Shown here one piece after another: positions 5,219-31,988 of a DNA stretch of 64,000 nt. The stretch is from the IMG/VR virus record IMGVR_UViG_3300028146_000008, positions 1 to 64,000 of that record; one strand, written 5' to 3'. This stretch comes from a virus. The translations under genes were made by a program, and so were the position numbers. Position 1 is the stretch's first letter. Each line of letters opens with the position of its first letter. Below the pieces are notes generated by a model. It was not told the DNA's origin, did no database searches, and was given only the letters and a program-made list of their open reading frames with translations.

Positions 5219-7488
5219 TATTGAACTCCTGCGGGCGGGGTCTGTTGATACGGTTTACCAGTGTAGGCATCCACCCACGTTTTGCTTTGCGGGTCCCAAC
5301 CGATAAACATTCGCCCATCGGTATGGATTTTGGCTTTGTCCACGTTCGGGGCGACTTTATTCCAATCCGGTTGCAGAGGCTGATTCTGTTGTGGATTTCC
5401 AATAGGTGCAGCCGTTCCCTGTGTTGGAGCGGGGCCGACTTGCATTTGATTTCCGGGGCCGAACTCTTTCAGTCTGTCTCCGAGTCCTAAACGAATCGCA
5501 GCATCGCGAGCGCCCGTTGAAAGTATTCCGCCATAGTGAGTTCCAGTTAGAGAAACATACGGTTGGTCAAGTTCAGACAAACGATCCAAACCTTGGTGGC
5601 CCATTTGGTACAGAGCGGCGGCAGCCATTCCCACAGTGATATCCGGATTCACCAATGCGTCTTTAGCGTGGTTCTCGTCAGCGGTTCCGGCATGTCCGCT
5701 CTTGACTACGTTCTGCCACTCTTCACGAGCAGCGGTTAGACCGATGATTACTTGTTCCAGCAGCGGGGCGTCTTCGGCTCCGACCTTTAAACGTGCTTGG
5801 TTGATAGGCATGTTCAAGAGCGGAGAGTTAGTACGGGTCAGACGGTCGGACAGTTCCTTCGCATCCGCAGCGTGGCGAAGCAGTTGACCGTTAGCCATCA
5901 AGCCTGCGCCGAGTTTGTTGCTCGGATTTTGGTAGTTTTCTTCGACTTTTTTAACTTCTTCGTACCCAGATTCTTTCCATTCCGGCAAAATCGCGCGAAC
6001 CAAAGATTCGTATTGCGCCCGGTTCATTCCCGGCACGCCCTTACGGAGCTGGGTGGCAATAGCTTTCGGATCCATTCGTTTGGTCAATAGGCCAAGCACT
6101 ACGTTCTGATCCTGCGGAGTGAGATTCATTAGAACACCCCGCGCGGCAGGGGGCAGACCTTGGTAGGCTTTCATTAGTTTGTCAACCGCAGCCGCTTTAT
6201 CATCGGGCGTTAAATTTCCACCATTTAGAGCATTTAATTGTTGCCGTAAGACTGCCGCATTTGCGAGAGATTCCTGAGTTTTTGCGACATCTAAGTTTGC
6301 TTGGCCTTTTCGCTGTTCAGCTTGTGCTTCTTTGTCGCCACGATCAGCCTCGGCTTTCAGCGCAGCTTCCGGGGTCACGCCTGCGGGATAGCCATGCTGA
6401 ATGTCTTCGTGAGTTACGGAATTCAGTAGACGGGGTTTGTCTCCCTCCCACACCAGTTCCGGAGTGTTTTCGCCCTTCAGCCATTCTTTATATCCAGCCG
6501 CTTTTTGGAGCAAAAGCGCAGACAAATCTTGTGGAGAAACTTCAAGCCCTGCGGTAAGACGGTCCACGTCATTCTTCGTGGTCTTGCCACCGAGAGGTGC
6601 GTATTTTTGAATATCGGCAACCAAAGATGGCGGCAGTGCGATTTTTCCATCCACGCCGTGAATCGGGAGCATGATGACTTGCCCTTCTCCCGGTTTCGTG
6701 GTCTGGTTTTCTTCGTCTATGGTTGGGGCAGAGAAACCGCCCGGTAAAAAGATATGTTTCGCAGCCGATGGGTCGTTATTGCCCTTCTCAGCAGCCGCCA
6801 TTTGCTCGGCTTGAGTTGCGCTTATAATCTGGGCGTCTAACCCTGCATCCTTAGCGGCGCGATACAGTTCCATGTTTCCTTGGCGCTGGGGGTCCATGTC
6901 CAGCCCGAGCTTCTGAGCCTCGACTATGTTTCGATACGTCAGGGCGTTTGTCGCAGCGACTTGATGTTTCTGGAGAATTGCTTTTTGCTGGGTTTCAAAT
7001 TCTTCTTTACTTTGCTCCCGTTTCAGAAGGTCTTCCTGCTTGGCGTTTTGCCGAACCGCTCCTGCACCGGCACCTAGTCCAGCTAGAGCATTCGCTAATC
7101 CGCTTTTTTGATCCGGAGCCTGGGAACCTGCTTGCAGCCCCATCAATGCTTTATTTGCGATAGCGCGGATTTTCTGAGACGGAGACATCGGCGGCGCTTC
7201 AGTTGTGATGAGCCGACCTTGGGCGTCGTAGGAATACGTGGGCGTGGATTTCCCGGCTAGTACTCCGGACACGTCCGAAAGTGCGCGGGTCGCCATATTT
7301 ACAAAACTGTGCAGCATTCGGTTGTTGCTCGGAGCGGCGGGCGCGGTTGGCTGAACTGCTGTGCTTACCGCAGTGGATGGATCGCCTGTTCCGCCCGGAA
7401 TTCCTGACGCAGCGTCCATTGGAACGGGAGCCGCAACGGGTTGCTCCGTTCCTGTTGCACCAGCAGATGGGGTATCTTCAAAAGCCAT
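5218..7488 (-). CDS. Putative DNA ejection (internal virion) protein
   Basis: 756 aa, Ala/Gln-rich, LAGLGAGAGA segment followed by a coiled coil; position in operon. Confidence 0.55.
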   Translation of the reverse strand: MAFEDTPSAGATGTEQPVAAPVPMDAASGIPGGTGDPSTAVSTAVQPTAPAAPSNNRMLHSFVNMATRALSDVSGVLAGKSTPTYSYDAQGRLITTEAPPMSPSQKIRAIANKALMGLQAGSQAPDQKSGLANALAGLGAGAGAVRQNAKQEDLLKREQSKEEFETQQKAILQKHQVAATNALTYRNIVEAQKLGLDMDPQRQGNMELYRAAKDAGLDAQIISATQAEQMAAAEKGNNDPSAAKHIFLPGGFSAPTIDEENQTTKPGEGQVIMLPIHGVDGKIALPPSLVADIQKYAPLGGKTTKNDVDRLTAGLEVSPQDLSALLLQKAAGYKEWLKGENTPELVWEGDKPRLLNSVTHEDIQHGYPAGVTPEAALKAEADRGDKEAQAEQRKGQANLDVAKTQESLANAAVLRQQLNALNGGNLTPDDKAAAVDKLMKAYQGLPPAARGVLMNLTPQDQNVVLGLLTKRMDPKAIATQLRKGVPGMNRAQYESLVRAILPEWKESGYEEVKKVEENYQNPSNKLGAGLMANGQLLRHAADAKELSDRLTRTNSPLLNMPINQARLKVGAEDAPLLEQVIIGLTAAREEWQNVVKSGHAGTADENHAKDALVNPDITVGMAAAALYQMGHQGLDRLSELDQPYVSLTGTHYGGILSTGARDAAIRLGLGDRLKEFGPGNQMQVGPAPTQGTAAPIGNPQQNQPLQPDWNKVAPNVDKAKIHTDGRMFIGWDPQSKTWVDAYTGKPYQQTPPAGVQ

Positions 7489-7890
7489 TTAATTCTCCTG
7501 TACAGGCGCTTCTATCGCTTCGAGCAGCCAACCGATTGGTGTAGTTAGTGAAACGGATTCATCACTAAGTGAACGGCGCAGAAACAAAATCAGTTTGCGA
7601 GCCGTGGATTCGTTGCTGAAACCGTAGATAGAAAACAAATCTTTCAGAGTGTTCTCGGGCATCAGGCGATTATTCTTACCGCTGCATTTCGCCTGCACAT
7701 CGGCGATGCCCGCTTTAAATCCACCCATTACGGAACTGAAAATCCTGTAGTGTTCGCTGTCACACTTTTTTTCCGGACGATAGGTTTTCAGCAACAACGG
7801 ATTACAAAGTTTGAAGGCTTTAGCGTCGGGATCGTCCCATGCACCGTTGTACTTCCCGACACTCAAAACGAAGGCTTCGATTTTCAACAT
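7489..7890 (-). CDS. Hypothetical protein, possibly a degenerate lysozyme-like virion protein
   Basis: Weak resemblance (LCNPLLL...IFSSVMGGFKA..TLKDLFSIY) to NNPGNL-type phage proteins. Confidence 0.3.
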   Translation of the reverse strand: MLKIEAFVLSVGKYNGAWDDPDAKAFKLCNPLLLKTYRPEKKCDSEHYRIFSSVMGGFKAGIADVQAKCSGKNNRLMPENTLKDLFSIYGFSNESTARKLILFLRRSLSDESVSLTTPIGWLLEAIEAPVQEN

Positions 7891-7907
7891 GATATTTTTC
7901 TATTTCC

Positions 7908-8573
7908 TTATCCGGGTTGTCCTGTGCCCGAGTCTTGAAATGCCCCACCACCACCGCCGCTGTGTTTGCCAAATGGCAATAAACCGCCAATGATTCCACC
8001 GGCTAATCCTGCGACGGGTTTCATCCATGCCTGATTAGCTTCGGTGATCGAGTCAGCACCTTTTTGCTGGAGTCCTGCGCCGCTCACCGCTTCGCCACCG
8101 GCTGCCGTAACTGGATTTTCTAGTTCGCCAGGGGCTTTGCTGAGTCCGGATGTAGCAAATTCCCAGTTCTGTCGGCCAATGTCATACCCGCGTTGCGTGA
8201 TTTGCGACTGTGCGAGGGCTTCTTTTACTGCGGTGTCTTGTGCGAGTGAACCAAGAATCGCATCTTCGGACCCGCTTGGTAGATACGAAGTACCGCCACC
8301 GCGCGATGCGACCGCACCACGCACGGCATTTGCAGTCTGACCTGCCGCAGAATTAAGTTGTTCCGCAGTCATGGTGCGTTCAGCCGCTTCCTCGGCGGGT
8401 GACATTCCGAATTGGCTGGGTCCCGCATCCGAAATTGGCTGAAGATGACCTGTGAGATCACTCAGAATTTCTTGATTTTGTCCCGCGAAGTCTTGGAACT
8501 GAGATGTCAGAAGATTTGACACCTTTTGTTCATTGGCATACGCGGCTTTCTGCTGTGAACTGGCTCCGCACAT
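7908..8573 (-). CDS. Putative small ejection/pilot protein
   Basis: Starts MCG, Ala/Gly/Gln-rich, C-terminal GLAGGIIGGL; follows the GNAT-like genes. Confidence 0.5.
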   Translation of the reverse strand: MCGASSQQKAAYANEQKVSNLLTSQFQDFAGQNQEILSDLTGHLQPISDAGPSQFGMSPAEEAAERTMTAEQLNSAAGQTANAVRGAVASRGGGTSYLPSGSEDAILGSLAQDTAVKEALAQSQITQRGYDIGRQNWEFATSGLSKAPGELENPVTAAGGEAVSGAGLQQKGADSITEANQAWMKPVAGLAGGIIGGLLPFGKHSGGGGGAFQDSGTGQPG

Positions 8574-29502: not shown

Positions 29503-30118
29503 GAAATTACAACTGGATGGCCTTGTATCGGGTCGGCTTACTGTAGTCCAACGGGCGTGTGTGATCGCCAAGAACACCTTTTGGATATGCCAGTGCTCGT
29601 GCGATGGTTTGTACTCCATCATCCGAGGAAAGAGCATCACGGGCAAGAGAATACAAAGTTGTGGTTGCATACGCCGAGAGATGAATAAAAAGAAAGCAGC
29701 GCGACTTGCTATCTTAAACACCTTGGCACCCGGCGAAGCTGCGTTGAACCAGCTATACGCTTCTTATGAGTGGCACGCGGTGATGGATAGAAGTCTTACG
29801 TTCAACCTAACTGTTGATGAGTTCAGGGCGCTGACAAAAGGAAATTGTTTCTATTGCGGGGTTGAACCAAAACAAGTCTCGCGGAACGTTAGCTGCAAAG
29901 GTTCTTACACTTACAACGGAATAGATCGGAAAGATAGCTCTTTGGGCTACAGTCCTGAAAACTGCGTCTCTTGCTGCGGGTCTTGCAACAAAGCTAAAGG
30001 AAAGAAATCTGTTGAAGATTTTCTGGTCATGTGTAGGAAAGTTTCAGAAAAAGCCATGTCAGGGGCGGCCCTAGAAACCGCCCCCTCGATGGGTTGTTTA
30101 AACAATAACGTTAGCTAA
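29495..30118 (+). CDS. Free-standing HNH-type homing endonuclease
   Basis: GRLTV..WICQCSC..SCGC N-terminal domain; CFYCG...NGIDRKDSSLGYSPENCVSCCGSCNKAK. Confidence 0.85.
   Translation: MHKKLQLDGLVSGRLTVVQRACVIAKNTFWICQCSCDGLYSIIRGKSITGKRIQSCGCIRREMNKKKAARLAILNTLAPGEAALNQLYASYEWHAVMDRSLTFNLTVDEFRALTKGNCFYCGVEPKQVSRNVSCKGSYTYNGIDRKDSSLGYSPENCVSCCGSCNKAKGKKSVEDFLVMCRKVSEKAMSGAALETAPSMGCLNNNVS
30062..30084 (-). terminator. GC-rich hairpin downstream of the MCP stop (possible terminator or stabiliser)
   Basis: GGGGCGG...CCGCCCC inverted repeat about 26 nt after the MCP stop; no clear U-tract. Confidence 0.35.
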
Positions 30119-31988
30119 TTGCCGACGTAGCGTCGATGTATCGAAGCCTCATCGTAGTGTCGGGAGGGAGGCTCGCCGTGTAGTGTACACGATACGAGGT
30201 CCAGCCCGGAATTAGTCCGGATGGGTCCGCCACGCTCAGAGGAGCATTTTGGACAATGTTACATTCGCCTGCTGTTAACTTGTTCTAAGAAAGAACAATG
30301 CTAAATCATTTCTGTTTAGCTCATACAGTTTTTATTCCTGTATGTTCGGACTATTGCATCGCCTTGCGGCGTCTTCTCGCTTAGTCTCTCACGCTGCGAT
30401 TTCTCGCTTGCGCCTCGTTGCCATTTCAGGGTTCGAGTCAATCAGAGAAGATTTTAGGAACACCGAGTTTTAATGTTCCGCCAGTTACCGTCTTCGATTG
30501 CATTGTCACCACGTCCGCCTAGGCGAATCGCTATGACTCCGTCTTTACCGAAGATGTAGGTACGGTACGCAACCACCGAAGCCGCCGAACCCTGATACGC
30601 CGTTGTGAGCGTAACCAAGTTCGACTGGAAGAACGCGACACCAGATGCTGGGAACTCCAGCGTGTCCGCGAGGTCAACCGAGACCAAATCATCCATGCGC
30701 TGGAGTCCAGGCACGGTGTGCTTCAGTACGTCGATTGCTGAGTTGTTGCTGGAATCGTTCAAGAGGTCGCCAACGGCGAACGGGTGAATGACGCCTGCGA
30801 AAAGTGCTTCCGCTTCGTTGAAGGGCTGCACTGCGCGGCCAGCCAGAGACTGGACCTGAGCGCGAATGTTGGCGAGAGCCAACGAAGTACCACCAGTGAT
30901 CTTGACCGACACGGAGCTGTCAACGCTGGAAGCGCCGTCAGCAACCGCACGGGTGATCGCGGACAGAGACTGTCCAAGGCGATACGAAAGTTCGCGACCG
31001 ACGTTTTCAACAACCGGGTCGATTGCGGTAGCGAGGGAAAGGCTGGAGAAGTTCGCGTAGTCCGCGTACTCACCTATCGTGGCAGTCGTAGTTCCGACTG
31101 ACGCGCTGATGCCCGTGGGCACCGTGCCTTCGGACACTTGGGCGGTGTTCGCGCCAAATGTGTTATTAGTTGTGTTTAGGGTTTAAAGCGAGGCTTCCTG
31201 TGTCACCACAGGATCACTCTTACGGTCACCCGTAAGCTCGGACTCTATCTTCTCTTCGGTTTCCCGAAGGTCTTGCGTATTAGTCTCTACGGAGTTATCT
31301 TGTCGATTCAGTAGGCGAATTTTATTGGCCAGTTCTTGGCGTTTCTGAGGACTACCATAAGGTAGCCGCAAAAACTCTAACGCAAGAATGGCTTGTTCTC
31401 TTTTCATTAGCAGGTATGGAACAATTGCGAGTAGAAAATTCTCTCGGTTCTTCTTGCCTGCGGGCATCCACATATACTGGGTACGCCCCGGTTTTCCGCC
31501 GTATCCGATTAGGGATCGAACGTAAAACCGCCCCCCGACATTTTTAACCAACCACTTCATCAGGAAGAGAGATGTATTGTAAATCGCTACTTGGAGTTGA
31601 AAGTCTCCTTGCGCTCTTTTGTTAGCGCAAATAGTTCCTTCTCCATCGACTATCCCGGCCAGATACGACCATAAATGTTTTTCCATTTTAGATATTTCCT
31701 CGGTATTGTCTGATAATGATTGTATCAGAGATCCACCGATATAGCAAGATTTTTAATTCATGCATAACTGTAGGTCTACATGAATAGTTCCAACTGATTA
31801 CCGGAATTGAGAGGGAGTTCCCGACGTTCTGCACAACGAACGAAAGGAGTCTGCGCTTTCAAATTCTCAATAAAACGCTTCTTCTTTCAGTTGGTTTGAT
31901 CTACGACAAGCGTTGTTTAATCGTAGTAAATTACTCGCGATTGCGGTAAGTTGGAAGTAGTGTTTGAAGCTGGATTAAATCCGGCCAT
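30111..31988 (-). CDS. Major capsid protein (N4 gp56-like family), four exons: 31988-31920, 31880-31778, 31166-30473, 30267-30111; 340 aa spliced
   Basis: Joined exons (69+103+694+157=1023 nt) give one open frame: MAGFNPASNTTSNLPQSRVIYYD|KRFIENLK...SGNQLELFMY|NTFGANTAQVSEGTVP...GVIHPF...YRTYIFGKDG...NWRNI|ECNIVQ...ADPSGLIPGWTSY...SAIS*. Lies directly after the scaffold gene. Confidence 0.9.
30268..30472 (-). ncRNA. Group I intron 3 of the MCP gene (205 nt, ORF-less)
   Basis: P1 GGAACAU/GUGUUCC with U.G; P10 UCG/CGA; P3 UCUUCUC/GAGAAGA; P7 GAGACUA/UAGUCC; P8 CGCCGCAAGGCG; P9 hairpins; terminal G at 30268. Confidence 0.9.
31167..31777 (-). ncRNA. Group I intron 2 of the MCP gene (611 nt) carrying a LAGLIDADG ORF
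   Basis: P1 UUCAUGU/GCAUGAA with U.G; P10 GUUAU/AUAAC; P3 UCUUGC/GCAAGA; P7 GAGACU/AGUCC preceded by AAGAUAG; P9 hairpins CUUACGG-GUGA-CCGUAAG and UCCUGUG-GUGA-CACAGGA. Confidence 0.88.
31183..31686 (-). CDS. Intron-encoded single-motif LAGLIDADG homing endonuclease
   Basis: YLAGIVDGEGTI motif, IVPYLLMKREQA; ORF lies within intron 2. Confidence 0.9.
   Translation of the reverse strand: MEKHLWSYLAGIVDGEGTICANKRAQGDFQLQVAIYNTSLFLMKWLVKNVGGRFYVRSLIGYGGKPGRTQYMWMPAGKKNRENFLLAIVPYLLMKREQAILALEFLRLPYGSPQKRQELANKIRLLNRQDNSVETNTQDLRETEEKIESELTGDRKSDPVVTQEASL
31881..31919 (-). other. 39-nt core-less group I-like mini-intron (intron 1 of the MCP gene)
   Basis: UAAACAACGCUUGUCGUAGAUCAAACCAACUGAAAGAAG: two in-frame stops, a 14-nt guide complementary to the spliced junction, terminal G. 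Confidence 0.75.

Follow-up and report, generated by a model that had tools for sequence, protein, structure and literature searches.

The window analysed here is a stretch of 64,000 nucleotides (nt) of viral DNA, positions 1 to 64,000 of IMG/VR record IMGVR_UViG_3300028146_000008; its source is a 94-kb, 85%-complete record of an uncultured virus. On the minus strand, 3' of an SU10-type portal gene and a 311-codon open reading frame (ORF), lies the sole major capsid gene of the phage, a member of the N4-gp56 family (by the names of its homologues and PHROG 1357). The gene is divided into four exons by a 39-nt insert near its start, which we refer to as the mini-intron, and by two full introns further downstream (introns 2 and 3), and a listing of ORFs yields mere fragments of it. 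An earlier note on this stretch had drawn attention to the mini-intron, which is the subject of this report. Our analysis suggests that it is a group I-type intron stripped of its whole catalytic core (P3-P9), retaining a guide, a tether and a tail that ends in G. The parts of the gene, in the order of transcription, are as follows.

31920-31988, minus strand: exon 1 (M1-D23); the ORF starts at 31988 and runs for 23 codons to 31920, identical to the N-terminus of homologue P0004
31926-31920, minus strand: exon strand of the mini-intron P1 helix, the last 7 nt of exon 1
31881-31919, minus strand: core-less mini-intron, 39 nt, made up of a 5-nt leader with UAA, a 14-nt guide, a 6-nt linker, an 8-nt tether strand and a 6-nt tail ending in G
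31908-31914, minus strand: guide, P10 strand, forming 7 base pairs (bp) with the start of exon 2, 31880-31874
31901-31907, minus strand: guide, P1 strand, forming 7 bp with the end of exon 1 (31926-31920), the pair at the 5' splice site being U.G
31887-31894, minus strand: tether strand in the mini-intron tail, forming 8 bp with exon 2 at 31797-31790
31881, minus strand: terminal G of the mini-intron (omega-G position), read from the sequence
31778-31880, minus strand: exon 2 (K24 to the first base of Y58), 103 nt and of equal length in the related locus L051
31790-31797, minus strand: exon 2 strand of the tether helix, 4 nt before the intron 2 P1 and 12 nt before the intron 2 5' splice site
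31167-31777, minus strand: intron 2, proposed as the helper, of group I type and 611 nt long, with an internal guide sequence at 31763-31756 (P1) and 31768-31764 (P10); last base A
31183-31686, minus strand: endonuclease-type ORF within intron 2, with a LAGLIDADG-like motif near its N-terminus and a match to PHROG 5046
30473-31166, minus strand: exon 3, placed by homologue alignment and exon joining
30268-30472, minus strand: intron 3, a compact group I intron of 205 nt without an ORF; last base G
30114-30267, minus strand: exon 4 including the stop codon, placed by exon joining

Joining the four exons gives a protein of 339 amino acids followed by a stop codon, collinear with uninterrupted homologues, the closest of which is 97% identical over exon 3. 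Homologues of about 340 residues (P0001, P0004, P0005 and others) are continuous across YYD-KRF, so the 39 nt are inserted exactly between D23 and K24, and their removal restores that motif, as the earlier note had proposed. The nearest cultured relative of the phage is Tunturiibacter phage Tunturi_3 (PP885686.1), which has a 97.6-kb genome, an acidobacterial host and an uninterrupted capsid gene whose product is 63% identical to that of the window; by this relation the phage in the window may also infect a member of the Acidobacteriota.

Group I splice-site anatomy without a core

The insert places two in-frame stop codons in the capsid gene, UAA at 31919-31917 and UGA at 31889-31887, and the frame resumes at 31880. 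Following its short leader is the guide (31914-31901), 14 contiguous nucleotides complementary to the joined exon ends, with 7 bp to exon 1 and 7 bp to exon 2. Pairing with exon 1 (31926-31920 with 31907-31901) forms a P1 helix whose last pair is U.G, while pairing with exon 2 (31914-31908 with 31880-31874) forms a P10 helix whose guide strand lies directly 5' of the P1 strand. Fourteen contiguous pairs spanning the junction were reached in only 4 of 200,000 shuffles of the insert. The last base of the insert is G, as expected at the omega-G position of a group I intron. The insert, its two stops, the guide, the U.G pair and the terminal G were all found where the earlier note had placed them, as was the start of intron 2, 103 nt downstream.

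That note had also argued that the insert has no room for P3-P9, and this is borne out. Just 20 nt remain 3' of the guide, which leaves no space for a catalytic core, and a search of the insert against Rfam returned no match, even at E up to 10. On its sequence, the insert is not a group I ribozyme, yet it has group I splice-site anatomy. Its splice-site U.G wobble pairs form only in sense-strand RNA, and we considered and rejected a reading of the insert as a DNA-level palindrome. We also rejected an archaeal or tRNA-type bulge-helix-bulge intron: both splice sites lie on one continuous guide, no bulge-helix-bulge can be drawn, and the nearest cultured relative infects a bacterium.

The tail of the mini-intron holds a further helix, which we term the tether. 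Eight nucleotides at 31894-31887 pair with exon 2 at 31797-31790, a complementarity with p = 0.002 when the tail is shuffled and compared with the 22 nt before the intron 2 P1. This test replaced an initial version that covered the whole exon and allowed G.U pairs, which was too permissive (p 0.02-0.7). The predicted minimum free energy and centroid folds of the region both hold the mini-intron P1 hairpin and the tether helix, and the overall fold energy of the region is not unusual (z = -0.8).

A diverged copy covaries and is under purifying selection

Three exact or degenerate DNA patterns for the D23-K24 mini-intron gave no match when run against viral contigs. A degenerate-pattern scan of metagenome contigs led to one further copy, L051, which has a 42-nt insert between the same two codons. 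It shares the start codon context and the 103-nt length of exon 2 with the window, and its intron 2 is homologous, with an endonuclease ORF that has diverged. A third sample also contains contigs whose insert is of the L051 type (places 31897 and 31898) alongside others that carry no insert. A search of sequencing runs found none that contains the locus as RNA. Run X1, from this third sample, is labelled RNA-Seq and is probably DNA; where it shows joints without the insert or without intron 2, the flanking letters differ, marking them as relatives that lack those elements, and they are uninformative on splicing. The presence of the insert in independent assemblies excludes assembly error and, with it, the assembly deletion of a full-length intron that the earlier note had named as a way in which its proposal could fail.

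We aligned the window and L051 from the end of exon 1 to the start of intron 2 and compared four helices: the mini-intron P1, its P10, the tether and the intron 2 P1. All 30 pairs are formed in both copies (60 of 60 cells). Six helix columns vary between them, and these resolve into three compensated pairs, one each in P10, the tether and the intron 2 P1, with the mini-intron P1 invariant. In P10 (A-U to C-G), the guide changes from A to C where exon 2 has a synonymous difference at position +6, in an Arg codon. In the tether (A-U to G-C), the tail changes from A to G opposite a synonymous difference in an Asn codon of exon 2, and in the intron 2 P1 the guide of that intron changes from U to C opposite a synonymous difference in a Leu codon. 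When the partners were shifted by 1-3 columns as a control, no pair was compensated and pairing fell to 30-39%. From these alignments it appears very unlikely that all six changes fell in complementary partners by chance.

The inserts of the window and L051 differ at 5 of 39 bases and by one 3-nt indel, far fewer changes than are seen at neutral flanking sites. Differences in the exons are mostly synonymous, and, with dS about 1, the ratio of nonsynonymous to synonymous substitution rates (dN/dS) comes to 0.095 when exon 1 is taken by itself and to 0.04 for exons 1 and 2 together. Purifying selection on exon 1 implies that this exon is translated and that the capsid gene is functional in both insert-bearing lineages. 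Taken together, we regard it as highly probable that the insert is a real, selected intron that acts at the RNA level.

The earlier note had read the insert as one half of a helper/dependent pair, with intron 2 or intron 3 as the possible helper. Comparative evidence supports this reading, and the tether points to intron 2 rather than intron 3, because the covarying 8-bp helix joins the mini-intron tail to exon 2 just before the intron 2 P1.

Mini-introns in related capsid genes are followed by full introns

The note had further proposed a search of related capsid genes. Besides L051, which keeps P1 and retains P10 with a compensatory change, a survey of related IMG/VR capsid genes, in which junctions were assigned by protein-guided mapping and sequence reading, yielded 18 mini-introns that could be parsed. 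These are 33-98 nt long and form about nine families or sub-families at seven or more sites, around residues 20, 23, 30, 33, 52, 54 and 315. Their lengths (33, 34, 36, 39, 42, 43, 46, 47, 50, 60, 62, 71, 83 and 94-98 nt) are mostly not multiples of three, and several of the elements split codons, which precludes both read-through and hopping by the ribosome. In all 18, U stands at position -1, the final base is G, and one contiguous guide is complementary to the ends of both exons. Similar inserts recur across many long viral contigs from different samples, with one 62-nt form identical in seven samples, while a locus scan based on homologue P0055 found nearly all genes uninterrupted.

Every parsed mini-intron has a full intron directly next to it, 41-112 nt downstream. 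Full introns without an upstream mini-intron are common, and the ordering of mini-intron then full intron, tested over seven genes, gave a value of 4e-4. Furthermore, in each family the tail has a best helix of 5-10 bp (G.U allowed) with the exon before the P1 of the next intron, its end falling 6-18 nt short of the 5' splice site of that intron. In 7 of 9 family representatives, 7 bp or more can form between the tail and the exon immediately 5' of the helper, and the tether tests for all nine combine to p = 6e-5 (Fisher).

The relationship between tail and helper is particularly clear for the mini-introns at residue 315. These share one guide and have helpers at three positions, and in each case the best tail helix (6-10 bp, G.U allowed) lies just before the element's own helper. 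Two of the loci, L131 and L147, have mini-introns whose first 59 nt are identical and whose last 25-35 nt differ, carrying two different tethers, which suggests modular exchange of the tether segment. The two elements (L131:3941-4034, minus strand, and L147:2477-2559) occupy the same site, and each 3' end matches a different helper position. Tether covariation is also seen within sub-families (L029 versus L132, and L024 versus L045). In the L024/L045 pair, at another site, it repeats the switch described for the window and L051: the exon position is again the last base of an Asn codon, U or C, covarying with A or G in the tail.

The smallest mini-intron (33 nt; L142, L144 and L147) breaks down into a leader of 4 nt, a guide of 13 nt, 2 further nucleotides, a perfect 9-bp tether and a 5-nt tail. 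Judging from such minimal forms, a guide, a tether and a terminal G seem to be all that a mini-intron requires.

The densest case is the L134 capsid gene (about 5690-8436), which appears to have three pairs of short insert and full intron in series (50+663, 43+659 and 97+206 nt). That insert (L134:5730-5830) lies near residue 20, about 40 nt upstream of the 663-nt intron, and is flanked by an imperfect 10-nt direct repeat, so that position -1 and the last base are equal at every possible junction. At L036:1256-1268 the capsid match shifts frame around residue 236 without an insert (net -1 nt), probably through an assembly or sequencing error, or as a real frameshift.

L024, L045 and L048 have inserts of 42-50 nt at the site occupied in L134 by the 663-nt intron, whose 5' end, comprising the guide and the A-rich segment that follows, resembles theirs. 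Because of this resemblance, we consider that mini-introns probably arose from full introns by internal deletion of the core. At D23-K24 itself, no full intron was found in the related loci examined.

The neighbouring full introns

Introns in this capsid family occupy a dozen or more positions and include two types relevant here. Intron 2 is of a longer, ORF-bearing type. It weakly matches the Rfam group I model RF00028 across P7-P3'-P8-P7'-P9, scoring 20 bits (E 0.03) against a gathering score of 50, and its 5' half is separated from this matching 3' half by the ORF. L051 has almost the same sequence at both ends and in the core segments of intron 2, but a diverged ORF. Its P1 has a U.G pair and one compensated pair, and its P10, judged by eye, follows two synonymous changes of exon 3 in L051. 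The last base of intron 2 is A in both copies, rather than the nearly universal terminal guanosine of group I introns, and the junction is fixed by protein alignment and P10. At least five other full introns in the capsid family also end in A by protein-guided mapping, with 3' tails otherwise like those of G-ending introns; the loci listed for A-ending introns are L026, L028-L034, L042, L043, L047 and L051. The only PHROG match of the intron 2 ORF is to PHROG 5046 (E 1e-15), labelled HNH endonuclease, and a Pfam search gave no match for this ORF or for exon 3. Reading in the frame of exon 3, the ORF spans P7-P9 of the ribozyme and stops 17 nt short of the 3' splice site.

Unlike intron 2, intron 3 belongs to a family of compact introns of about 200 nt without an ORF, which also includes the helpers of several mini-introns. 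Intron 3 was aligned with 12 related loci (alignment A3), and compensatory changes were seen in 24 of 41 predicted pairs. The order of the pairs is as expected for P3, P4-P6, P8 and P9, with conserved P7 strands between them. RF00028 itself gave no match to intron 3 or the compact family, even at E up to 10.

Discussion

We are able to propose a mechanism for the removal of the mini-intron, which on balance we believe is excised in cis by the ribozyme core of intron 2. On the capsid pre-mRNA, the tether would hold the P1/P10 helix of the mini-intron beside the folded core of intron 2. That core would dock the foreign P1 and cut at the U.G site using guanosine, and would then bind the terminal G of the mini-intron and ligate exon 1 to exon 2. 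Intron 2 would excise itself last, because its own removal would break the physical link. Continued removal from the RNA would explain why the mini-intron persists in the gene. Core-less segments are excised from other RNAs by engineered group I spliceozymes and trans-excision-splicing ribozymes (PMC4094466, PMC2532722), which makes the chemistry that we propose feasible. More generally, the family as a whole argues, with moderate confidence on our part, for a natural form of two-part splicing: ribozyme-less group I mini-introns, down to 33 nt, that carry a guide and a tether and are cut out by the core of the next intron, so that one ribozyme serves two introns.

Several observations weigh against this model. 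We infer both splicing itself and the use of the intron 2 core from comparative support. The D23-K24 family comprises two sequenced copies, so each of its covarying pairs represents a single event. Intron 2 falls below the Rfam threshold and ends in A, its own activity is a prediction, and its own P1 would compete with that of the mini-intron for one active site. Across the wider family, the tether taken alone is not significant for the long-tailed mini-introns of 62-98 nt (p 0.14-0.5), the best helix reaches only 5-6 bp in L040, L132, L134 and L142, one P10 change in L142 is uncompensated, and the 50-nt insert of L134 did not parse by the U/G rules.

Other routes from the interrupted gene to a capsid protein have to be considered. 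One is that group I chemistry acts in trans, through a free ribozyme (excised intron 2, intron 3 or the introns of other phage genes), with the tether serving in folding, splicing order or the prevention of exon skipping. Engineered group I ribozymes do act in trans (PMC4094466, PMC2532722), both late capsid mRNA and excised introns should be abundant, and intron 3 belongs to a well-conserved family of compact ribozymes. We nonetheless consider this route unlikely: a full intron directly after every parsed mini-intron, in the order supported by our test, is not expected if any ribozyme could serve, and the pairing of the tails follows the position of a particular next intron.

Alternatively, removal might require proteins only: an endonuclease would cut at each junction of the structure splinted by the guide, and an RNA ligase would seal the resulting nick. 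The guide does splint both exon ends side by side, and nick-sealing RNA ligases such as T4 Rnl2 and RtcB accept splinted substrates. A protein pathway, however, would need neither the U.G pair, nor the terminal G, nor the group I order of P1 and P10 found in all parsed mini-introns, and it leaves their strict pairing with a downstream full intron unexplained. We regard it as improbable.

It is more doubtful still that the genome is defective and the insert a dead remnant or an artefact of assembly, with the capsid protein either not made or initiated downstream. The window does come from an uncultured, 85%-complete viral contig, but the insert is present in three independent assemblies, exons 1 and 2 have been under strong purifying selection since the insert-bearing lineages split, changes in the guide and the tether are compensated, and similar inserts recur in many long viral contigs of different samples. 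A dead remnant and a downstream start had both been named in the earlier note as outcomes that would undo its proposal, and both are contradicted by the purifying selection on exon 1 and the insert.

T4 gene 60 contains a 50-nt gap that ribosomes bypass by means of matched take-off and landing codons and a nascent-peptide signal. It resembles the mini-intron as a short, stop-containing gap in an essential phage gene, probably left by the traffic of mobile introns and endonucleases. In favour of bypass, UAA directly follows the last exon 1 codon (as is also usual in phage group I introns), that codon lies within the P1 hairpin, and the gap is close in size to 50 nt. We see scarcely any chance, however, that the 39 nt are likewise retained and bypassed: the take-off codon GAU is not matched by the AAG before the resume point, sister mini-introns of 34, 43, 46, 47, 50 and 62 nt split codons such that only an exact RNA joint restores the conserved residues, and bypass has no need of U.G, terminal G, P10 or a neighbouring intron. 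The mobile elements of T4 have been reviewed (PMC2988022).

The mini-intron has much in common with known phage group I introns, such as those of T4 td and nrdB and the three in orf142 of Staphylococcus phage Twort (RF00028). These share the U.G pair of P1, P10 bases located directly 5' of the P1 strand and a terminal G, as well as an in-frame stop right after the 5' splice site, a position in an essential gene and endonuclease-bearing introns nearby. Group I introns are, however, defined by carrying their own ribozyme; the mini-intron, without P3-P9 or a guanosine-binding site, cannot self-splice, and it forms an extra helix with the downstream exon that is absent from canonical introns. In the literature available for searching, we found no natural group I intron that lacks its core or depends on a helper.

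Three other systems provide partial parallels. Group III and mini group II introns of Euglena chloroplasts are reduced to about 100 nt, keep their splice-site determinants and are thought to need trans-acting help. They differ in being another intron class with lariat chemistry, and we know of no description of a tether that links them to a neighbouring complete intron. In engineered spliceozymes and trans-excision-splicing a core likewise removes a core-less internal segment, constrained only near its ends, and joins the flanks (PMC4094466, PMC2532722). There, the ribozyme carries the guides and acts on a separate RNA, whereas here the excised segment carries the guide and the ribozyme would be a natural intron, tethered to that segment and part of one transcript with it. 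Among natural cases, the closest is that of the degenerate group I introns in the rDNA of lichen fungi, which, in the account given in PMC8527467 (citing DePriest and Been 1992 and Haugen 2004), have lost catalytic sequences and do not self-splice, but are still removed in vivo. As outlined there, they too are group I-derived elements removed by another agent; they are about 200-300 nt long, keep most of the fold, reside in eukaryotic rRNA and have a helper presumed to be dedicated machinery, whereas the mini-introns are 33-98 nt long and a specific neighbouring ribozyme is indicated.

In practice, inserts of 30-100 nt break gene calls in essential phage genes, and standard RNA models miss both the inserts and their helper introns. 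The tether rule allows a sequence-level prediction of which intron serves which mini-intron. If the model proposed here is true, the mini-intron would be a non-autonomous intron, a parasite on a parasite analogous to non-autonomous transposons, and the core of its helper would be a natural group I core able to accept a foreign P1/P10 helix. It would constitute a natural counterpart of the engineered spliceozymes and a living step from self-splicing towards shared catalytic RNA. Such a pair would offer an experimentally simple model for the evolution of trans-acting splicing machinery from self-splicing introns.

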